A DNA stretch of 64,000 nucleotides, taken from the NCBI GenBank assembly GCA_021776735.1, contig JAJFFH010000008.1:4490-68489 (forward strand), read 5' to 3'. The stretch's first letter is position 1. Each line of letters starts with the position of its first letter. The translations under genes were made by a program, and so were the position numbers. Origin of the DNA: Planctomycetota bacterium (GTDB lineage: Bacteria > Planctomycetota > PLA2). The notes beneath the pieces are model-generated. The model saw nothing but the letters and a program-made list of their open reading frames with translations. It did no database searches and had not been told where the DNA came from. This document shows, one piece after another, positions 25,851 to 59,495 of this stretch.

Positions 25851-28265
25851 ATGACCGAAGAGATCCGGCTCGACCAGGAAAGCGCGTTGCGTGGCTTCGG
25901 CTCGGTCAGTGGCGGTGAGGCGCAACGAACGGAGGAATCGACGGAGCCGCCGGAGCGGCGCTACAGCCTCGAGGGCAAGCTCGGTGCCGGCGGGATGGGC
26001 GAGGTTTTCCTCGTGCGCGACCGGGATCTTCGGCGCAACGTAGCGATGAAGATGTTGTGCGGGGCACCGGATGCGCAGGAGGAGTTGCGCCTGCACTTCA
26101 TCGCCGAAGCGCAGGCGACGAGCCAGCTTGAGCATCCGGGTATCCCGCCGGTGCATGAAATCGGCTTCACCGCGGAGGGCCGCGTCTACTTCACGATGAA
26201 GGTGTTGCGCGGCCGTACGCTCCGGGAGATCATCGATGCGCTTGTTGCATGCGATGCGGGGACGGAGACAGAGTTTACCCTGCACAGACTTGTGACCGTG
26301 CTCGAGCGCGTGGCCGAGACGCTTCATTTTGCGCACGAGTGCGGCGTCATCCATCGCGACCTCAAGCCAGCGAACATCATGCTCGGCGACTACGGCGAGG
26401 TCTATGTGATCGACTGGGGGCTCGCGCGGGTCGAGGGTCAGCAGGACCACGTCGGCGAGAGGCGCCTGCAGACCGCGCGCACCGAATCGGGCCACAAGAC
26501 GCAACACGGTGCGATCCTCGGCACCCTCCCCTACATGAGCCCGGAGCAGTCACTCGGGCAGGCCGACGAAGTTGATGCGCGCTCAGACATCTTCGCCATC
26601 GGGTGTGTCCTGTACGAGATCCTCACGCTGAAACCCGCGTATGACGCGGTCGACTTCTCCGGGTTGTACGCGCAGGTGATCAAGTGCGACTTTCCACCGG
26701 TGGGCTCGCGGAACCCGGAGCGTCCCGTGCCGGGGGAGCTGGAGGCGGCCTGCACCATGGCGATGGCGGCTCGCAAGTCGGAGCGGACATCGTCGGCGGG
26801 CGGGTTGGCGCGCGAGCTGCGTGCATGGCTGGACGGATCGAGCGAGCAGAAGCGGCGTCTCGCAGGGGCTGATTCCCTTGCGGCTCTCGGCGCGCGTGTC
26901 GGACAGCGGGTCGAGGCACTTCGCGGGCAGTTGCGCGACGCCGTCGGGCACGCGGAGGAAGAGGAGGCCCGATACGAGCCGTGGCAATCGCTGGACGAGA
27001 AGCAGTCCCTCTTGGAGGCGCGTCGGCGGGTCGCCGGGCTGCGTCATCGGCAGGCGACGGAGTTCGCGGAGGCGACGAAACTCCTGGACGCCGCGATCGT
27101 TCAAATGCCCAATCATGAGGGTGCCCGCGCGCAGATGGCCTCGCTCTGGAGCACGCGGCTGGAGGACGCGGAGCGGATCCGGGACGACGTGGAGGCCACG
27201 TACGCACTGAATATGGTTCGTCGCTTCGACGATGGCCCGCTCTCGGAGTTCATTTTGGGTGACGGCGTGCTCGACCTCCGCAGCGAACCTTCGTCGGCCG
27301 AGGTCGTCCTGCACCGCTACGAGGATCGCGGCGGCGTGCTGGAGGCGGTCGAGGACCGCGTGCTGGGCATGACGCCGTTGCGCACCCGGCTTCCCATGGG
27401 GTCGTATCTTTGCGTCCTGCGCTGGGAGGGGTGTGCCGATGTTCGCTACCCGGTCCACATCACGCGTTGCCGGGAGTGGAGCGCGACCGTGACGTTGCCC
27501 GCCCAAAGCGACATCGGCGACGGCTTCGTCTACGTCCCGGCAGGCCCTGCTCTGCTTGGTGAGGGCTCGCGGAAGTGCGAGGTCGATCCCGGCGACTTCG
27601 TTATCGGCCGGACGCCGGTCACGCTTGGCCAGTACGCCGAGTTCCTTGAGGATCTGGACCGCACGCGGGGTCGCTCGGCCGCGGCCGAGCATGTTCCGAA
27701 TATGCGCGGCGAAGGCGCGTTCTTGGAGCGCCGCGAGGACGGTCGGTATGCGATCCTCCGCACTGTTTGCGAGGGGTCCGCTCGCGAGCGGTGCGAGGTG
27801 CGCTACGGCGAGGGCTTTGAGCGCAACCTGCCCGTGTTCTGCGTGAGCTGGTACGACGCGCACGCCTACTGCACCTGGATGTCGGAACGGACGGGACGCA
27901 AGTGGCGGCTGCCGACCGAGGCAGAGCGGGAAAAGGCGAGTCGTGGAGTCGACGGCCGCTTGTTCCCGTGGGGCGACCTGCAGGATGCGTCCCTGGCGAA
28001 GTGTCGCGATTCATTCCCCGAAATCGCGCAACCCGAACCGGTCGGGGCGTTCTTGTCCGCTGTCTCGGTGTACGGCATGGCGGATGCCGCGGGCGGCGTC
28101 TGGGACTGGACGGACACGCCGTTCGACAACGACGAGACCTCGATGTTCGTGCGCGGCGGCGCGTGGAACGACGCGCCGGAATACTTGCGCTGTGCCTACC
28201 GCTACTGGATGGATGTCACCAGTCGGGGAACGCTGGTCGGGTTCAGGTGCGCGCGGAGCCTCTGA
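25851..28265 (+). CDS. Ser/Thr protein kinase fused to a formylglycine-generating-enzyme (SUMF1/FGE-sulfatase) domain
   Basis: Kinase motifs [32 protein letters not shown]. The C-terminal FGE-type domain has [15 protein letters not shown] and [18 protein letters not shown]. 804 aa. Confidence 0.9.
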
Positions 28266-36205: not shown

Positions 36206-37855
36206 TCAACGACTGCGGTGTGCGAGCCACCGCTTACGGTGAAATGCCAGCACGTAGTCGACGTGGCGGTTGGATGATCCCAGTCCTATTGAACCGGGTG
36301 ACGTGTTCTTGTCCGGCAGGATGTCGCGAAGGACCTCGTCGGCCAGTCGGAGGTTCAACAGTTGCATTTTGTCTGTAATGGACCCATCGCCGGCGAGGCT
36401 CTTTCGCACCGTCAGCATGCGGTTGAAGATCGTCGGAAACGCCGGCTGGCCGAGCGCAACGAGACTCTCCTTCGCGACCAGCGACTCGCCGACCGTGGCG
36501 TCGAACATCATGTCGATGAGCCGACCGATTCTTCGCGTGAAGCCTGGCGCATCGGCAGCGTTGCCGTGTTTTCTGATCGGCTCCACTCGTTCCTTCTTGC
36601 CGCGGAGTCCGATCGAGGAGGCAGCGCCCGGGCCCTCGAAGGCACCGCTCTTGTCGGATTTCGGCACGACCCGGCTGTCGGGCGCTATCTGGACCGCGAC
36701 CGTGTTGCTCTGGACAGTGCCCGTGTGCGTTTGAGCCGTCAGGTGGACGTGGAGCAGGCCGGTACGCGTGCCCCGGATCAGGACCGCGCCGTTTCTCGGG
36801 CCCTTCACGACCGCGGCGCTCGGGCGCGGGTCGCATTGCACTCGCAGCGCCGTGTCCGGAACGCTGTTCGATTCGAACGAGTAGCGGAGCGAGAACTCGT
36901 GACCGATCGTCGCCTCCCGCGGCCCTGCAAGGGTCAGCTTGGGTCGACCCCCTTCGTACTTTGATCGCTTCGGATTGTTGTCGCGAGAGACCAGCCAGAT
37001 CAGGAAGACTCCGAGCGGGATCAACCCAATCATGATCCAGCGGGCCTTGGTCGATCCCGGTGTCTTGTCGCGGCTACGCGTTGACCGCGGCGAGCTGATT
37101 GATTTCCGTGCATGCCCGCGCCGGCGCGTTCGCGCCCGATCAGACCTCCGTCGGTGTTTCGTGCGGGTCTTGCCCTTCCTCTTTCGTGTGGGAACCGGGT
37201 TGGGCTGTTCGTCGATGTTGGGTACAGGCCCGGGTTCGGGTTCGGGTTCGGGTTCGGGTTCGGGTTCGGGTTCGGGTTCGGGTTCGGGTTCGGGTTCGGG
37301 TTCGGGGTCGGGGTCGGGTTCGGGTTCGGGGTCGGGTTCGGGTTCGGGTTCGGGTTCGGGGTCGGGTTCGGGTTCGGGGTCGGGTTCGGGTTCGGGATCC
37401 GTCGTCGGTCCCGGCGAGGCGATTGCGGACGAGTCGGGTTCGGTGGCACGCTGGTAGTTCAGCAGTTCCGCAACGGCGCGCGACAGGTGGTCCAGGTGTT
37501 CGTCCAGCGGTTCGGTCAAGGCATCGAGCCAGTGGGAAGCTCCGATGTAGTACTCGACCGCGTCGCTCGGGGGCCTGTCCTGGATTCGGAATGGGAGAAT
37601 CGCCGCGTTGTTTGCCACGGCACGCTCCAGCTCGCGAAGCACCTGACTCGATTGATTGGAGTGTTCCGAGTAGATGAGCACAAACACCCTTGCGCTCCGA
37701 ATCGCACGGTTGATCTCGCCGGCCCATGTCGCGCCCGCACGAATGTCGCGCGGCGCGATCCAGCAACGGACGCCCGCCGCCTCCAGCCGTGCGCAGGCCG
37801 CGTCGGCCACAGGCTTGTCCTTCGTAGAGTGGCAAATGAAGATATCGTGCGCCAC
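36206..37855 (-). CDS. membrane-anchored TIR-domain protein (N-terminal TIR, acidic PE/PD repeat, TM, extracytoplasmic domain)
   Basis: TIR_2-like [80 protein letters not shown]. Then about 55 residues of (P-E/D)n, a basic stretch, the [19 protein letters not shown], and a C-terminal domain of about 270 aa. Confidence 0.85.
37231..37396. repeat. hexanucleotide microsatellite (GGGTTC/GGGGTC)n, about 27 units, inside the TIR gene
   Basis: Read directly from the sequence. On the coding strand it gives the PEPEPD... linker. The unit length of 6 keeps any expansion or contraction in frame. Confidence 0.95.
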
Positions 37856-42284: not shown

Positions 42285-42854
42285 CTACGTCCGCGCCAAG
42301 CCGCGTGCCCGTCGCGCGAGCCGGTGGGCCTTGCGGAAACGGTCCAGCGCGCGCAGCCGGGCGCGCCGGGCCGCCTCGTACGTCACGCCGAGTCGCGCCG
42401 CCATCTCGTCGAGTTCCACGTCCTCGCAGGACCAGCGTACGAGTTGCTGGTCGCGCGGCAGCAGTGCGGTCACGGCGTCGTAGGCGATGGCCAGCGCCTC
42501 GCGCCGTTCGGCGAAGGTCGCGGGTCCGGTCGAGTCGCGCACCGGCTCCGCAGCCGCGTGCGCGTCGCTGGTCGATGACGCCGCCTCGGTCAGGCGCAGC
42601 AGTGCGCCCGGCCGCCGCCGCACGGCCATCCAGTACGCGTGACGGTCCGCCAAGTGCGAGCGCGCCAGCTGGTGCATCCATTCCAGGAACGGTTTTTTGC
42701 CGCGGAACTCGAAATGCTCCTGCTTGAGCGCGCGCAGGTGGATGCCCTGCACCAGATCCTCCGGCGCCTCGAAGCGCAGCACGCGGCCGCCGCGGCGGGT
42801 GACGAAGGCCAGTAGCGCCTCGCGATGACGCTGGAGCAGTTCGGCCAGCGTCAC
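42285..42854 (-). CDS. ECF sigma factor, translationally coupled to the upstream Ser/Thr kinase
   Basis: 189 aa from GTG 42854. Region 2-like PEDLVQGIHLRALK and region 4-like RDQQLVRWSCEDVELDEMAARLGVTYEAARRARLRALDRFRKA. The start overlaps the kinase stop as GTGA. Confidence 0.8.
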   Translation of the reverse strand: MTLAELLQRHREALLAFVTRRGGRVLRFEAPEDLVQGIHLRALKQEHFEFRGKKPFLEWMHQLARSHLADRHAYWMAVRRRPGALLRLTEAASSTSDAHAAAEPVRDSTGPATFAERREALAIAYDAVTALLPRDQQLVRWSCEDVELDEMAARLGVTYEAARRARLRALDRFRKAHRLARRARGLART

Positions 42855-45784
42855 GGCCGCCTCCGCAGGACGAGACGAAACCCGAATTGCGTTGCCTTGC
42901 GCGTGCGGTGCGCCCCGAGCCCGTTCTCCAACCGAAACTCGGACGGCTTGGCCGAGGCCCACGAGCCGCCGCCGAGGCGGCGAAAGTCGGGATTCGACGG
43001 GTAGGGCGTGGCGAGCCACTCCTGCACGCTGCCGGTCATGTCGTAGATGCCGCGCGGGTTGCAGTCCGTCGGGTACGACATGACTGGCTCGGGCCCCGGC
43101 TTTGCCCGCGAGAAGTTCGAGTTGGTCCACCGCGGCCAGAACACGTTGCCGAAAGCAAAGGCCCAGCTGCCCAGCCCCTGGCCCGCGCGCAGCCACTCGG
43201 CGTAGGTCGGCAGGGCGTACACCATGCCCGCCGGCGTCGCGCGGTTGCGCCACGCGACAAACGCCTCGGCGTCGTCGAAGCTGATCCCGAGTACGGGCCA
43301 GCGCGGGCGCCATGTATCGGGCAGTCGATACCGACCGTCGGATGTCTTGGGCCAGAATCCGCCTTGAGCTTCGTTGTGGGGGGCGTGGGGGCAGTACTTT
43401 CCGCGTGCCCCCGGCGCTTCGTTGATAAACGCCAGGTACTCCGCGCACGTGACCTCCCGCTCCATGATCCAAAACGGTTCGCCCCGCTCCGCGACGTGGA
43501 CGAATCCCGCCGGCGCCGCTTCCGCGGGGGGCAGCCGCACCGGCAGCTCGAGGGGGTTGGAGCCCAGCATCACGCGGACATTCCGGCAATCCGCGTGGCG
43601 AAACAGCGCGACGTACAGCGAGCTGCTCGGCAGGGCGATTCGTAACGGTGTCTTGCCCACGTATGCCGTCTTCGTCGGCAGCAGCGGGGTCGCCGTCGGG
43701 CGCAGCGCAAGTCCCTTCGGCAACGTGATCGTGACCAGACCGCCGTTGCGCCACACCTGCGCCTCGACTCCGCCGCGGGCTGCGAGCGCCTCGGGCGCGC
43801 CGACCTCGATGCCGAGGACCGCCAAGCTTTCGCCACGCACGTCGCCGGCGTGCTGGAAACGGAACACGCTGCCCTCGGTGTGGTGCGCATCCCACGCCGC
43901 GCGCACCGGGACGTCGTCGATTTGGAGGAGCCGGTCGCCGGTGGCCACCTTCGAGTTGCCCCGCAGCACGAGGACCGCGTCCCGGATCGGATGTCCGGCG
44001 AGTTTCACGATCCACCACGGCCGATCGACGACACGCAGCGCCCACGTGGCGGGGGACAATACGGGATCGCCCTGCCACGGCACCGGCACCCGCCGCCGGC
44101 TTCCGCCGGGGACCACGTCGGCCTCCTCCAAAAAGCGCCACAAGAAAACCTCGGCGCCGGGCGGATCGGTTGAGAACTCCTGCCCGTACTCGCCGTACCC
44201 GAGGTCGAGCTGTGGATCCTCGCGACGCGCCCGGTCCTTCCAGAACCGCCTGGTGACGGGGTTGTTTTCGACCTGGGAGCGGCGCTTGTACAGCCGCGCC
44301 CGCACGGCCCGCACGTTTTTCACGTCGGTGTCGAGCTGCCGGGCGCGGTGCAGCATTTCGAGCGCGCGATGGAACTTGGCGGATCGCGCAAGCTGCAGTC
44401 GCCGTACCTCGGCGCGTCCGTCGAGCAGCCGGCGCTCCTCGTCGTGGTCCAGGTGTTTGCTGGCGATGTAGGACTCGAGCACGGCAACCTCGCCTTCGAA
44501 CTTGCGCGAGTCGGACCAGTCCTGCCGCAGCTCCTCGCCGAGCGCGTCCGCGCGGGCGACCATGTCTTGGGCCCGGCCTGCGCGTTCGCGCGCCGCCCGC
44601 CAGCGCTGCACGCCAAAGATGGCGGCGCCGAGCAGAAGTGCGGTCAGCGCCATCGCGGCCGCCGGATGACGGCGAATCCAGCGCAGCGTTTTCTTGAGGG
44701 GGCCCGGGGGCCGCGCGCGGATCGGAGCGTCGTCGAGGACGGCCGTGAGATCGTCGGCAAAAGCGCGGGCCGACGCGTAGCGCGCGCGCGGCTCCTTCGC
44801 GATCGCCTTTTGCACGACGGTGTCGAGGTCGCGCGGCAGCGACGGGTCGAGCTTGCGCGGTGCGACCGGTTCCTCGATGAGGATGCGCCGCACGACCTGT
44901 TCGATGCTGCCGCCCGCGAACGGCGTGCGTCCGGTGAGCAGTTCGTAGAGCACGACGCCGAGTCCGTACACGTCCACGCGCGCGTCGATGTCGTGGCCCA
45001 TGATCTGTTCGGGCGCGGAGTAGAGCGGCGAGCCCGCGTAGGTCTGCGTGAGACCCGCCGTCGCCTCGGCGTCGCGTGCGATGCCGAAGTCGAGCAGCAA
45101 CGGCCGGCCATCGGCCGCCAGCCGAATGTTGGAGGGCTTGACATCGCGATGAACGATGCCGTGGTCGTGCGCGTGTTGCAGCGCGTCTGCGAGCGCGCGC
45201 GCCCAGCCGGCCGCCTGCCGCCACTTCGGTCGCGCCGATAGCTTGTCGAGGTTTTGTCCCTCGACAAGCTCCATCGCGATGTAGTCGTCGCCGACCTCGT
45301 GGACCTGTGCGATGTGCGGATGCGTCAGGCGGGCGGCCGCGCGTGCTTCCCGCCGGAACCGTTCAACGGTGGTGGAGGATCCAAGCAGGTCCGGGCGGAT
45401 CATCTTCAGCGCGACGCGACGCCCCAAGGACTCCTGCTCGGCGAGGTACACGCGCCCCATGCCACCTTCGCCGAGCAGCGAGAGAATGCGAAACTCGCCG
45501 ACGCTTTCCGGGATCCCGTCGTGGGCTCTCGTTTCGTTTCCGCAATCCTGCGCTTGCGCTGCGCTGCGGTAGAGCCGGTACAGCGTCTCGATCCGCGCGC
45601 GCGCCTCGCCTCCGAGTTCCGGGTATCCCGTCAGAAAACGGTCGGGCGATTCCACGTCGCCGGCGAGGCACCGGTCCAGGTAGGCGTCGTAGAGTTCCTC
45701 CTCGGTACGCGCCACGTCGCCATCGTACCGGGCGCGCGGTCCGATTCCCGGGGCCGAACAAGAAAAGGGGCCCAAGCGCACCAT
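42851..45784 (-). CDS. Ser/Thr protein kinase fused to a formylglycine-generating-enzyme (FGE-sulfatase) domain
   Basis: GEGGMGRVYLAEQ, HRDVKPSNIRL, DFGIARD, a TM near AAAMALTALLLGAAIF, and C-terminal ALPTYAEWLRAGQG, RRLGGGSWAS. Start set at ATG 45784, because the longer ORF would overlap the gene at 45979. Confidence 0.9.
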   Translation of the reverse strand: MVRLGPFSCSAPGIGPRARYDGDVARTEEELYDAYLDRCLAGDVESPDRFLTGYPELGGEARARIETLYRLYRSAAQAQDCGNETRAHDGIPESVGEFRILSLLGEGGMGRVYLAEQESLGRRVALKMIRPDLLGSSTTVERFRREARAAARLTHPHIAQVHEVGDDYIAMELVEGQNLDKLSARPKWRQAAGWARALADALQHAHDHGIVHRDVKPSNIRLAADGRPLLLDFGIARDAEATAGLTQTYAGSPLYSAPEQIMGHDIDARVDVYGLGVVLYELLTGRTPFAGGSIEQVVRRILIEEPVAPRKLDPSLPRDLDTVVQKAIAKEPRARYASARAFADDLTAVLDDAPIRARPPGPLKKTLRWIRRHPAAAMALTALLLGAAIFGVQRWRAARERAGRAQDMVARADALGEELRQDWSDSRKFEGEVAVLESYIASKHLDHDEERRLLDGRAEVRRLQLARSAKFHRALEMLHRARQLDTDVKNVRAVRARLYKRRSQVENNPVTRRFWKDRARREDPQLDLGYGEYGQEFSTDPPGAEVFLWRFLEEADVVPGGSRRRVPVPWQGDPVLSPATWALRVVDRPWWIVKLAGHPIRDAVLVLRGNSKVATGDRLLQIDDVPVRAAWDAHHTEGSVFRFQHAGDVRGESLAVLGIEVGAPEALAARGGVEAQVWRNGGLVTITLPKGLALRPTATPLLPTKTAYVGKTPLRIALPSSSLYVALFRHADCRNVRVMLGSNPLELPVRLPPAEAAPAGFVHVAERGEPFWIMEREVTCAEYLAFINEAPGARGKYCPHAPHNEAQGGFWPKTSDGRYRLPDTWRPRWPVLGISFDDAEAFVAWRNRATPAGMVYALPTYAEWLRAGQGLGSWAFAFGNVFWPRWTNSNFSRAKPGPEPVMSYPTDCNPRGIYDMTGSVQEWLATPYPSNPDFRRLGGGSWASAKPSEFRLENGLGAHRTRKATQFGFRLVLRRRP

Positions 45785-45966
45785 TGCGCGCGGCCCCCGG
45801 TGTTGCCCGCCCGCCTCGGGGGCGCCGCGGGTGGAGCTCTTGGCGCCGCCCGACCATCCGGATCGGCCCGGTCCATTCCCGTAGTTGCGAAGCGTGCCCC
45901 AAGACCGAACAGCCCAGCGGAAGAAAACAAGCGAGTGCGCCCGTGCCGGGTCCGGTCGTAACTCGC

Positions 45967-45972
45967 TACACT
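45967..45972 (+). promoter_or_regulatory. -10-like hexamer TACACT, 6 nt before ATG 45979
   Basis: TAnnnT hexamer at leaderless-type spacing. Confidence 0.45.
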
Positions 45973-45978
45973 GCAGCG

Positions 45979-46344
45979 ATGCACGTCCGGATGATCGCGG
46001 TGGCGGCGGTCCTTGTCGGCTGTGCACGGTCGGAAACGGAGACACCGATGAATACGGACGCTCGCTGGTGGCAGTTGCTCGATGCCACAGTTCCTGCCCG
46101 CGGTGCGGGCACGGACGAGCACGCGCAGGCCGTCACCAACCTCATGCCCGGGAGCCACGAACGCGGATCGTGTGAATCCCTCCTTTATGCCGCGGCAGAG
46201 GCCCACGAGGCGAAGACGGACGGCGAGGAGTTGCCCTGGGACGACTCCGTGGCGCGCAAGACCGAGCCGGACGGCGAGCGCTGGGACGAGCGCCGCGTTC
46301 ACGAGCTGTGCCCGGAGCTCGCCAAGCGCTTCAATTGGAAGTAG
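45979..46344 (+). CDS. small lipoprotein (121 aa)
   Basis: MHVRMIAVAAVLVGC lipobox; acidic mature part. No domain recognised. Confidence 0.6.
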   Translation: MHVRMIAVAAVLVGCARSETETPMNTDARWWQLLDATVPARGAGTDEHAQAVTNLMPGSHERGSCESLLYAAAEAHEAKTDGEELPWDDSVARKTEPDGERWDERRVHELCPELAKRFNWK

Positions 46345-57459: not shown

Positions 57460-57496
57460 CGCGCCACCCAGCGAGAGCAGAATGAGCAGGAAAAGA

Positions 57497-57515
57497 GCAA
57501 ACGGACGGCGATGTG
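57497..57515 (-). repeat. ATCGCCGTCCGT motif copy (exact core 57501-57512, bottom strand)
   Basis: GCAAACGGACGGCGATGTG; 37 nt after stop 57459, at the left edge of the composite repeat locus. Confidence 0.9.
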
Positions 57516-57738
57516 CGTGCGATCACGGCGCGGTCGGTGACCCAGAAATGGAAACACGAGGGCCACGGAGGATGAGAGGAAAGGGAACCACGAAGGGCGC
57601 GAAGAGCACGAAGGCAGGAGAGAGACATGAAATGACCCGCGGGATCCAACCTCCGTGTGCCAGTTTCATACCCGACCCCGACCCCGAACCCGAACCCGAA
57701 CCCGATTCCACCGAGAAGCACTACGACAGCTGACGAAG

Positions 57739-57824
57739 CGTTCACGTTCAGGAAGGACGTTCACGTAGCGCTTGCCGAACACGCGGAAGTCGATCATTCG
57801 AACAACCCGCGACGCAGTCGCGAC
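57739..57824 (+). repeat. 86-nt repeat unit U1
   Basis: CGTTCACGTTCAGGAAGGACGTTCACGTAGCGCTTGCCGAACACGCGGAAGTCGATCATTCGAACAACCCGCGACGCAGTCGCGAC. Confidence 0.9.
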
Positions 57825-57918
57825 CCGAACCCGAACCCGAACCCGAACCCGAACCCGAACCCGAACCCGAACCCGAACCCGAACCCGAACCCGAACCCGA
57901 ACCCGAACCCGAACCCGA
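57824..57918 (+). repeat. (CCCGAA)n microsatellite, about 16 perfect units
   Basis: Read directly from the sequence. Same hexamer family as inside the TIR gene (37231-37396), in the opposite strand orientation. Confidence 0.95.
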
Positions 57919-57976
57919 GCAGCCGTTCCCATTCACGAACGACGTTCACGTAGCGCATGCTGATCGCGCACCGGGA

Positions 57977-58384
57977 TCAACCCGGCGTTCGCGAACGCTG
58001 ACTCTGGATGAGCCGCGTCAACATCGCGCCGACCCGGTTCGTGTATGAGAGCAGCTCGTCGGACGTGTCCTGCGAGATGACCTTGACGATCGTGGCCAGC
58101 TCGAGAGCCGCGGCACCCTCGAGGCACTCCGCCTGCGCGATGGTGTAGCGGTAAGCCTTGTCCGCCGGCTTCCAGCGCCCCGCACCCTCGGCGATATTGA
58201 GAACCGTGGCCGTAGCGCAACGCCGCAACTGGTCCTTGATCGCTCCGTAACCACGCGGGAACGAAGCAGCCGATTCTTCGACGCCAGCAAACAGCAAGAT
58301 CGCGACCCGATAGACATCAAGCCGTTGGTGAGGTGCCAGGGACGATGCCCGGGAGGCCGCGGAGAAGTTTCGGTTGTCGGTCAT
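57977..58384 (-). CDS. four-helix-bundle protein (23S rRNA intervening-sequence protein / Avd-like family)
   Basis: 135 aa. [77 protein letters not shown] matches the TIGR02436-type pattern. AAGGAG Shine-Dalgarno. Confidence 0.85.
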
Positions 58385-58404
58385 GGAAGACTCCTTTCAA
58401 CGGG

Positions 58405-58449
58405 GAGCGCCTATCGCCCCACGCAAGTGGATAGGGGCGATGGGCGCTC
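58405..58449. promoter_or_regulatory. 16-bp-stem palindrome in the 5' region of four-helix-bundle gene A
   Basis: GAGCGCCTATCGCCCC-13 nt-GGGGCGATGGGCGCTC (one mismatch). The arm plus loop CCACTTGCGTGGGGCGAT(A/T)GGCGC recurs upstream of gene B (58758-58783). Confidence 0.55.
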
Positions 58450-58510
58450 TCCCGACAGTAGCCCCCGGCAACCGATCCGCCCGCGAGTCCGACGGCCAAG
58501 CGACCGAACC

Positions 58511-58602
58511 CGTTCGCGTTCACGAACGACGTTCACGTTCACGTAGTGCTTGCTGGATACGCGGGAGTCGATCATTCGAACAACCCGCGACGTAGACGCG
58601 AC
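58511..58602 (+). repeat. 86-nt repeat unit U3 (with a 6-nt internal duplication)
   Basis: CGTTCGCGTTCACGAACGACGTTCACGTTCACGTAGTGCTTGCTGGATACGCGGGAGTCGATCATTCGAACAACCCGCGACGTAGACGCGAC. Confidence 0.9.
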
Positions 58603-58810
58603 CCGACCCCGACCCCGACCCCCGACCCCGAACCCGAATGACGTTCGCGTTCACGTAGCGCTTGCTGACTCGAACGACGGCGGGACGATCAACGCACCCT
58701 GCGCGGGCGCTCTAATTCGGGTGGGCGACCTGGGGGGAGGGGGCCTAGCGCCCCCTTCCACTTGCGTGGGGCGATTGGCGCCCCCCGTCGCAACCCTGGA
58801 GGAACTCCAA

Positions 58811-59194
58811 GTGAACCATTCTCTTTCACCGTTCGCTCACGAAAGGCTCGATGTCTATCGTGTCGCGCTGCGGCTGTTTTCCGATGTTGAAGAGGTTGTG
58901 AATCTGGCGCCCGCCGGACACGGCGATCTCCTCAGACAACTTCGGCGCTGTGCTGCGTCGACGGTGCTCAACATCGGAGAGTGTGCGAACCGCGGGCACC
59001 ACAAGGACAAGGCATCTCGCTTCATCATTGCTCGCGGCGAATGCGGCGAGTGTGCGTGTGCGTTGGATCTTCTGCACGTCTGCGGGCTGGCGTCCGCCGC
59101 CAGGGTCGCGTCGCTCAAGAACACCGCTCGCAGAGTTGCGGCGATGCTCACCGGGCTCATCCGCCGCGAACGGCGGTTGGCGGAGTCGGGCTGA
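58811..59194 (+). CDS. four-helix-bundle protein (23S rRNA intervening-sequence protein / Avd-like family), paralogue
   Basis: GTG 58811 with GGAGGA upstream. [77 protein letters not shown]. Confidence 0.85.
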   Translation: MNHSLSPFAHERLDVYRVALRLFSDVEEVVNLAPAGHGDLLRQLRRCAASTVLNIGECANRGHHKDKASRFIIARGECGECACALDLLHVCGLASAARVASLKNTARRVAAMLTGLIRRERRLAESG

Positions 59195-59229
59195 TCCGAC
59201 CCGGTCGCCGTCGCGCCGTGCCCCCCAAC

Positions 59230-59315
59230 CGTTCTCGTTCTCGAACGACGTTCACGTAGCGCCTGCCAAATACGCGGATGTCGGCCATTCGAACAATCCG
59301 CGAGGTAGTCGCGAC
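59230..59315 (+). repeat. 86-nt repeat unit U5
   Basis: CGTTCTCGTTCTCGAACGACGTTCACGTAGCGCCTGCCAAATACGCGGATGTCGGCCATTCGAACAATCCGCGAGGTAGTCGCGAC. Confidence 0.9.
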
Positions 59316-59364
59316 CCGACCCCGAACCCCGAGCCCGAACCCATCCCGAATCCGATCCCGAACC

Positions 59365-59450
59365 CGTTCTCGTTCTCGAACGACGTTCACGTAGCGCCTG
59401 CCAAACACGCGGGAGTCGACCATTCGAACCACCCGCGACATGACCGCGAC
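59365..59450 (+). repeat. 86-nt repeat unit U6
   Basis: CGTTCTCGTTCTCGAACGACGTTCACGTAGCGCCTGCCAAACACGCGGGAGTCGACCATTCGAACCACCCGCGACATGACCGCGAC. Confidence 0.9.
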
Positions 59451-59495
59451 CCGAACCCGAACCCGAACCCAAATCCGATCCCGAAACGCCCCGAC

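Follow-up and report, generated by a model that had tools for sequence, protein, structure and literature searches.

We analyzed a 64,000-nt stretch of Planctomycetota DNA (contig JAJFFH010000008.1; hereafter the window), in which a composite repeat locus at positions 57670-59485 carries two divergent genes, A and B, both encoding four-helix-bundle proteins of the PF05635/TIGR02436 family. Each gene is preceded by a copy of one conserved 5′ leader, a GGGCGCCCATCGCCC-type hairpin closed by a helix between an anti-Shine-Dalgarno (anti-SD) strand and the Shine-Dalgarno (SD) sequence; the initial annotation of this DNA had listed the two copies as palindromes. Around the genes lie four full 86-nt units, two degenerate units and five (ACCCGA)n-type microsatellites, every one on the + strand, and the repeat content is far above chance expectation. 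We judge the chances to be about even that the locus represents a divergent pair of A-type and B-type PF05635 cassettes, as a lineage-specific version of a widespread architecture with its own cis-acting flanks.

This gene-cassette architecture is widespread and apparently undescribed, and the closest known arrangement is the intervening sequence (IVS) of rRNA genes that carries an S23p open reading frame (ORF). In the searchable literature we found no description of the leader motif, of the microsatellite association or of carriage by insertion sequences (IS), and the leader is absent from Rfam. The PF05635 family is very large and includes the Avd protein of diversity-generating retroelements (DGRs) as well as the ORFs of rRNA IVSs. 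We know of no function for the family outside DGRs, and the origin and movement of IVSs have, to our knowledge, been an open question since 1993.

Two divergent four-helix-bundle genes

The two genes and their leaders are arranged as follows.

57977-58384, − strand: gene A, an A-type four-helix-bundle protein of 135 aa (PF05635 59.4 bits, TIGR02436 60.5 bits, PDB 2GSC E 8.7e-7)
58382-58470, − strand: leader A, a long hairpin AGCGCCCATCGCCCC ... GGGGCGATAGGCGCT with an apical C-UUGC-G, whose closing helix pairs the SD AGGAG (fold -48 kcal/mol, z -4.5; covariance model R1, 62.8 bits)
58728-58811, + strand: leader B, a degenerate copy of the leader hairpin with its SD in a local GGAGgaaCUCC hairpin (R1 37.1 bits, E 1e-5; 80% identity to leader A)
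58811-59194, + strand: gene B, a B-type four-helix-bundle protein of 127 aa with a GTG start (PF05635 62.6 bits, TIGR02436 60.9 bits)

Both proteins exceed the family cut-offs (33.8 bits for PF05635 and 24 bits for TIGR02436), and they are 49% identical to each other. Protein A matches the pentameric four-helix-bundle protein XCC0516 (PDB 2GSC) over residues 11-132, a match in sequence only, and weakly matches PHROG 3206, ‘Avd protein of DGR’ (E 2e-4). The initial assignment to the 23S rRNA IVS/four-helix-bundle family, which includes Avd, is borne out by these scores.

Nine A-type paralogues (P0002-P0007, P0020, P0121 and P0122; 76-93% identical to A) and five B-type paralogues (P0124-P0126, P0134 and P0168; 85-88% identical to B) were identified, all on NCBI contigs, some of them truncated or frameshifted. 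They appear to be grouped by contig, as one A-type with one B-type gene and as one A-type with two B-type genes, and the A/B module is presumably multi-copy in the source genome. A search of viral contigs returned a single relative, 33% identical, and only single chance matches to the leader half-site; a phage origin was rejected.

A conserved leader occludes the ribosome-binding site

Leaders A and B are 80% identical over 134 columns in gene orientation, far above the 49% identity of the proteins that they precede, and their apex CCACTTGCGTGG is identical. Leader A folds very stably, with its AGGAG paired to an upstream CU..CU strand, in a helix weaker than that of relatives. Leader B has a degraded 5′ arm and folds less stably (z -1.6); its SD is sequestered in a separate small hairpin.

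A metagenome scan by protein alignment yielded 80 related loci, and exact look-ups added nine more. The loci closest to the window proteins are L014-L024 (50-57% identical) and L094-L102, and in these approximately 20 metagenomic loci the leader lies directly 5′ of the start codon. Its order is constant: a CUCC-containing strand, a hairpin stem GGGCGCCCAT(T)CGCCC with its complement, often a C-UUGC-G apex, NCGGAGG and the start codon. We built the covariance model R1 from 17 leaders, leader B not being among them, and searched it against 407 kb. R1 recovered both window leaders with the scores given above, and matched only leader positions, plus lower-scoring opposite-strand matches to the same palindromic hairpins; it also detected a partial, divergent second leader copy at the edge of L021. 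The remainder of the window, the more distant relatives and nine control loci gave no match.

The minimum free energy (MFE) fold pairs GGAG with the upstream CUCC in 16/16 relatives and in leader A. Pairs flanking this invariant CUCC:GGAG core covary, one position being occupied by GC (12 times), UA (three) and AU (one), and another by UA (five), GC (four) and GU (two). For pair counting, the strands of the outer helix were taken from each sequence separately, since MAFFT could not align the outer anti-SD helix. Across the 17 leaders the outer helix reaches a covariation score of 0.241, compared with 0.103 ± 0.024 for shuffled pairings (0/500 reach the observed value) and 0.07-0.14 for a slid partner, with a helix register that is anchored on each sequence’s own MFE fold and so favours the anchor pairing. 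Control of translation by the leader is supported by this covariation, and the leader RNA represents a new candidate cis-regulatory motif hiding the ribosome-binding site. The claim of the initial annotation that each gene has a conserved structured 5′ element holds on all of these counts: leader identity, SD-pairing folds, R1 matches and covariation.

Three more distant relatives (L013, L026 and L030) carry hairpins at the leader position that are unrelated in sequence and contain up to 40 perfect base pairs. Stabilities of the leader hairpins range from -45 to -107 kcal/mol. Since they are too stable for spontaneous opening, translation would be off by default and released by cleavage or by a binding protein. 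Leaders repressed by a hairpin or activated by RNase III are known from phage lambda N, the T7 early mRNAs and E. coli adhE. They resemble the present ones in having a stable SD-occluding duplex of 20-40 bp, the size of an RNase III substrate; the window leader is a separate, gene-family-specific motif with its GGGCGCCCATCGCCC stem and UUGC apex, and RNase III cleavage is in this case a prediction.

At L019:1000-1178, a hexamer tract, the anti-SD strand and the 5′ arm of the leader are duplicated in tandem upstream of a complete leader, which shows the leader region itself to be subject to unequal exchange. At L013:6581-11157, an A-type relative (50% identical to A) lies between rtcB and rtcR-rtcA, that is, an RNA repair operon and its sigma-54 activator, with a (GGTTTCG)n tract and, ending at the SD, a perfect ~30-bp hairpin in front of it.

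Composite repeats surround the genes

The repeats of the locus were delimited with nhmmer and TRF.

57670-57705, + strand: ms0, (ACCCGA/CCCCGA) x6, C-rich on the + strand and with a G-quadruplex motif on the − strand (TRF)
57736-57822, + strand: U1, a full 86-nt unit with core GACGTTCACGTAGCGCTTGCC, its 3′ end CGCGAC abutting ms1 (nhmmer E 1.9e-26)
57823-57918, + strand: ms1, a perfect (ACCCGA)16 tract of 96 bp (TRF 100% matches, score 192)
57921-57989, + strand: U2t, a degenerate unit with no microsatellite, its 3′ part overlapping the last codons of gene A (nhmmer E 1e-8 for 57922-57969, profile positions 2-49; alignment)
58508-58600, + strand: U3, a full unit with a 6-nt ACGTTC insertion, upstream of and antisense to gene A (nhmmer E 1.5e-25)
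58602-58637, + strand: ms3, (CCCGAC)n, between the divergent genes A and B (TRF)
58620-58689, + strand: U4t, a degenerate unit with no microsatellite, upstream of leader B (nhmmer E 1.5e-3 for 58629-58668; core match with 2 mismatches at 58646-58661)
59227-59313, + strand: U5, a full unit 33 nt past the stop codon of gene B (nhmmer E 5.4e-27)
59314-59366, + strand: ms5, a degenerate ACCCGA-type tract (TRF)
59362-59448, + strand: U6, a full unit (nhmmer E 2.3e-25)
59449-59485, + strand: ms6, an ACCCGA-type tract (TRF)

All parts of the composite locus that had been described from the sequence alone are present at their coordinates. A profile built from the four full units recovers these at E 1e-25 to 5e-27 and the two degenerate copies at E 1e-8 and 1.5e-3; neither the profile nor a core match located a further copy in the 64 kb beyond the six at the locus. 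A full unit runs from degenerate hexamers (CGTTCN CGTTCN CGAACG) through an invariant core GACGTTCACGTAGCGC to a CGCGAC end that continues into the microsatellite, so that the order of the composite repeat is core GTTCACGTAG, ~55 nt, GCGAC and (CCCGAN)n. U5 with ms5 and U6 with ms6 form a tandem duplication of 135 nt (TRF period 135, 1.9 copies, 86% matches). The arrays at 57670-57976 and 59195-59485 occupy the 3′-3′ intergenic regions between a helix-turn-helix (HTH) gene and gene A and between gene B and a membrane-protein gene, respectively.

Two shorter copies, U2t and U4t, do exist, as the initial annotation had stated; the distinct continuation that they were said to share is weak, because its ‘GATCAAC’ aligns in MAFFT to the GATCATTCGAACAAC part of the full unit. 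Given an 8-nt deletion, both copies align with a full unit over their whole length. We regard them as full-length units in degenerate form, lacking a microsatellite, rather than as a class with a continuation of its own.

Gene A ends in eight codons (QRSRTPG-stop, 57977-58003) made up of the hexamer-like CGTTCG CGAACG CCGGGT of U2t, and low-complexity N-terminal tails in relatives (e.g. SRFRSRF) come from hexamer repeats; the repeats thus invade the coding region at both ends. An AG-rich segment lies at 57475-57660 (+ strand) between the HTH gene and the first microsatellite and contains a 9-nt repeat, CACGAAGAG, at 57589-57613. Around the conserved core, manual inspection for spacing typical of extracytoplasmic-function (ECF) or sigma-54 promoters gave nothing convincing.

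Absence of rRNA, reverse transcriptase and mobility genes

Across the 64-kb window there was no match to rRNA or to any Rfam family at gathering thresholds, and the window is therefore taken to lack rRNA; at E up to 10, a search of the locus alone returned chance matches only. No tRNA was found in the window, and Pfam scans of ~40 ORFs across it identified no reverse transcriptase, integrase, transposase or cas gene. The initial annotation was right that rRNA, a reverse transcriptase and a template/variable repeat pair are missing. Its proposal of a self-contained genetic element fared worse, since the window contains no mobility gene and no element boundary, and IS ends were not found in it. 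A CRISPR array was rejected: the sequence between units consists of microsatellites or genes, no cas genes are present and PADLOC gave no match. A defence system was likewise rejected for lack of a PADLOC match.

Avd, which is small and basic and works with nucleic acid, belongs to the same four-helix-bundle superfamily as A and B, a family that forms pentamers (2GSC). The locus could in principle be a degenerate DGR or retroelement remnant, with the units as decayed template or variable repeats and the genes as Avd homologues left after loss of the reverse transcriptase. The PHROG match of gene A and the direct repeats of ~86 nt flanking the genes would agree with such an origin. We nevertheless regard it as extremely improbable: the window lacks a reverse transcriptase, a template/variable repeat pair and a target gene, no unit falls within a target ORF, the differences among unit copies involve all bases and are not adenine-specific, and loci L094-L102, with the same architecture, also show no reverse transcriptase in the flanks available.

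Related loci share the order and orientation of the repeats

The closest retrievable relative of B, P0127 (63% identical), is encoded at L094 and L095. L094 contains divergent A-type and B-type genes, each with a leader, and between them three tandem units of ~165-208 nt, co-oriented with the B-type gene and composed of GAGGTTCACGTAG(N6)TTGC, a spacer, GCGAC and a degenerate (CCCGRN)n. Directly before the conserved core, these units have an AG-rich segment (GATCGAAGAGGAAGAGGCGAGAGGAAGAGG) similar to the one next to the HTH gene in the window. At L096, the A-type gene P0010 (55% identical to A) has antisense units on both sides, and its tracts are G-rich, (GGGTCN)n, in the sense of the gene. 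The window and L094-L096 have in common the order core-spacer-GCGAC-microsatellite, both anchors, and the orientation, sense to B and antisense to A; homology of the units is recognised only through the anchors GTTCACGTAG and GCGAC(CCCGNN)n.

Units are ~80% alike within a locus yet almost unrelated between lineages, a pattern that marks concerted evolution through slippage and unequal exchange. An exact search for the 19-base unit core in 185,579 GTDB representative genomes, a set in which the source genome is not included, returned no true copy; the 12 single chance matches all fell in unrelated coding sequence. The unit profile found no homologue in the 80 metagenomic loci, with which local alignments had only hexamer parts in common.

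At L097-L099 (62% identical to B), the gene is flanked on each side by direct repeats whose sequence differs again, (GTCGTG)n and then GGGGGTACACGC. In contigs from three samples that code for an identical protein, one flank differs by one hexamer.

Microsatellites accompany the gene family

As a criterion for microsatellites we used a perfect repeat of a 5-7-mer in at least three copies within 400 nt of the gene, applied to 81 related loci. Such a repeat is present in 45/81. Microsatellite density is 1.37/kb near the gene, compared with 0.041/kb in the remaining sequence of these loci and 0.033/kb for 12 unrelated GC-rich loci, an enrichment of ~35-fold in a comparison that pools coding and non-coding DNA. 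No other intergenic region of the window has such a repeat, and the sole other copy is coding. Overall, genes of this family seem to be generally associated with repeats of this kind. The gene-repeat link proposed in the initial annotation is real and recurs in other organisms, both at L094-L096 and in these 45 loci; for this clade, the objection that such genes exist elsewhere without the repeats does not hold.

The coding copy lies 20 kb away at 37231-37396, where the locus hexamer forms a (CGGGTT)27.7 repeat of 166 bp in ORF 36206-37855 (− strand). The translated repeat is an (EP/DP)n linker that joins the N-terminal TIR_2 domain of the 549-aa protein to its remainder. Two origins come into question: a genome in which this hexamer readily expands, or seeding of the tract by a cassette flank.

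If the repeats were instead a generic genome-wide intergenic repeat of the REP/BIME, MITE or minisatellite kind, they would have no functional tie to the genes. The concerted evolution of the units and their 135-nt tandem duplication are dynamics of the satellite type, and the coding microsatellite indicates that the genome tolerates or generates the hexamer elsewhere. This explanation is quite improbable in our view, as the unit is confined to this locus within 64 kb, its 19-base core has no true copy in the representative genomes searched, anchor-sharing homologous units flank orthologous genes at L094-L096, and the microsatellites are enriched beside the gene family.

The repeats could also mark a contingency locus, in which hexamer slippage changes promoter geometry or the length of the untranslated region and so tunes expression of A and B, the 86-nt units being by-products. 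The 7-bp repeats of the H. influenzae hmw promoters are the model for such phase or rheostat variation. Like the contingency loci of Haemophilus and Neisseria, the window has long perfect microsatellites beside genes: a perfect tract of 96 bp and four shorter ones, one of which (58602-58637) sits precisely between the two divergent genes. The number of repeats is also polymorphic, with the one-hexamer difference between samples that encode an identical protein, and in Coxiella the heptamer repeats that precede the S23p ORF vary in number among strains (PMC4990558). We consider this distinctly unlikely all the same. Most tracts of the locus are downstream of genes and not in promoter regions, consensus scans located no promoter, and promoter spacing fails to explain the matched inverted pairs found on both sides of the gene in many relatives. 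Here the hexamers lie in GC-rich DNA, on both gene sides, often as inverted pairs, and beside one protein family across phyla.

The five tracts of the locus contain 46-64% C and 14-17% G on the + strand. On the − strand each of them fits the G-quadruplex motif G3N1-7 x4 (57671-57703, 57824-57916, 58602-58635, 59315-59347 and 59450-59470), and they make up more than half of the nine minus-strand motifs of this kind in the 64 kb. The minus-strand tract (GGGTTC)n differs by one base from the vertebrate telomere repeat.

This composition also fits a role in termination or insulation, with Rho loading (rut) sites on + transcripts and G-quadruplexes on − transcripts stopping read-through both ways. 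The arrays at 57670-57976 and 59195-59485 are placed between convergent genes, and a consensus scan found no intrinsic terminators in the locus. Such a role is highly doubtful, however, because the hexamers of most relatives (GACGGC, CGTGGT, CGTTGA) do not form G-quadruplexes and are paired as inverted arms, and because one tract lies between divergent genes, where a terminator is unexpected.

Inverted arms and carriage by insertion sequences

In relatives at 38-45% identity the repeats take the form of matched inverted pairs enclosing the gene, such as (GACGGC)n upstream with (CGTCGC)n downstream or (CGTGGT)n with (CCACGA)n. At L064 and L066 the arms are nested, as (CGTTGA)n(GACGGC)n-gene-(CGTCGC)n(CAACGT)n. 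Complementarity between the upstream and downstream flanks reaches z < -3 in 37/64 loci and z < -5 in 33/64, with simple shuffles as the control. The microsatellite association, often in the form of inverted arms, connects the free-standing genes to the architecture of IVSs.

In 20/80 metagenomic loci the armed cassette adjoins a DDE_Tnp_1 transposase of the IS4/IS5 type. Terminal inverted repeats TGTCCCTAA...TTAGGGACA bracket transposase and cassette in an element of ~1.4 kb (L042, L053, L055, L064 and L066), and at L039:193-766 a 565-bp MITE-like element with the same ends contains the four-helix-bundle cassette alone. The relatives resemble passenger genes of IS or MITEs in that the cassette lies between the transposase and the IS end; the window differs in having neither transposase nor IS ends. 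Cassettes inside IS4/IS5-type elements suggest a plausible route of spread. PF05635 genes have also been reported inserted inside cas operons (PMC3936711).

A proposed role for leaders and flanks

In the cassette-pair explanation, the anti-SD:SD helix of the leader hairpin would hold translation off by default. Release could follow two routes: RNase III may cut the 20-40 bp duplex and thereby remove the anti-SD strand, or a protein, possibly the four-helix-bundle protein itself, may bind the conserved C-UUGC-G apex. The period-6 flanks would act on RNA and do the same job as the inverted arms of distant relatives and the terminal stem of rRNA IVSs, forming long RNA duplexes through which the cassette transcript is insulated or processed. 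In inverted-arm relatives and rRNA IVSs, an intramolecular stem would let the host RNase III excise the cassette from any host transcript. In the window, such duplexes would be intermolecular, formed between the A and B transcripts or read-through transcripts and not within one RNA, because the repeats are co-oriented but the genes lie on opposite strands. Complementarity exists between the 3′ flank of the B transcript and both the 3′ and the 5′ flanks of the A transcript, and pairing between them could couple the fate of the two paralogous mRNAs. If the flanks are indeed RNA-processing signals, they offer a general way for a small gene to inhabit other transcripts harmlessly.

Several points weigh against this explanation. 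The flanks of each single gene, for both window genes and for L014-L024, show no complementarity (z ~0), so that an IVS-like stem is not literally present in the window. The duplex between the 3′ flanks of B and A has a z of -18, compared with ~-2.8 for same-strand controls, but it follows automatically from the geometry, and we put it forward tentatively. Folding of the 86-nt units was not significant on either strand (z -1.95 to +0.34), the sole recurring structure being one short stem, CGCGG...CCGCG, so that the units are not detectably the structured repeats of the initial annotation. Consensus scans found neither sigma-70 promoters nor intrinsic terminators above expectation in the locus. 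The orientation of the units relative to the A-type and B-type genes at L094 and L096 could reflect inheritance of one ancestral block. The self-anchored helix register and the pooled densities noted above count on the same side. Promoters, transcript ends and RNase III cleavage, like the role of the units and microsatellites, are what we infer from the sequence, and that the paralogues belong to one genome we likewise infer.

A more far-reaching reading, which we consider unlikely, would take PF05635 genes, including the ORFs of rRNA IVSs, as cargo of unrecognised semi-autonomous cassettes with period-6/7 arms and an SD-sequestering leader, the window being a two-gene variant. The arms would be actively produced or kept up, for instance through templated addition of repeats or through action of the four-helix-bundle protein on its own flanks. 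Excision by RNase III would permit harmless insertion into transcribed DNA, whether rRNA, operons or IS, and in the window processing would depend on pairing between the two transcripts.

Comparison with rRNA intervening sequences

The S23p ORF of Coxiella occupies the loop of an inverted-repeat stem; RNase III cuts this stem and thereby removes the SD region, and heptamers in variable number, (GACAGAT)2-3, are found just upstream of the ORF (PMC4990558). The window resembles the rRNA IVSs of Leptospira, Coxiella, Xanthomonas and Brucella in its PF05635/S23p proteins, in an ORF within structured flanks, in tandem repeats beside the ORF and in a duplex over the ribosome-binding region. The topology of IVSs, a long inverted-repeat stem whose loop contains the gene, is matched by the distant relatives and not by the window, where the flanks of each gene are direct rather than inverted and no stem encloses it. 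The window also differs in having two divergent paralogous genes with protein-coding neighbours, outside helix 25 or 45 of a 23S rRNA gene. Neither an SD-sequestering leader nor 86-nt composite units, both present here, have been described for IVSs.

Neighbouring genes

Upstream, the locus is bordered by genes for an HTH_34 regulator and a membrane protein, and downstream by those for a membrane protein, a homocysteine S-methyltransferase, a HAD hydrolase and MoaA, all of them ordinary genes. Gene content, along with the single homologue that carries a name, points to a probable Planctomycetota-like origin. What the window encodes elsewhere is of the kind that large environmental genomes, e.g. 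of Planctomycetota or Myxococcota, usually contain. Two large proteins (25851-28265 on the + strand and 42851-46045 on the − strand) contain a Ser/Thr protein kinase domain fused to a C-terminal FGE-sulfatase domain. The window also codes for an ECF-sigma fusion protein, a PEP-CTERM protein and a leucine-rich repeat (LRR) protein.

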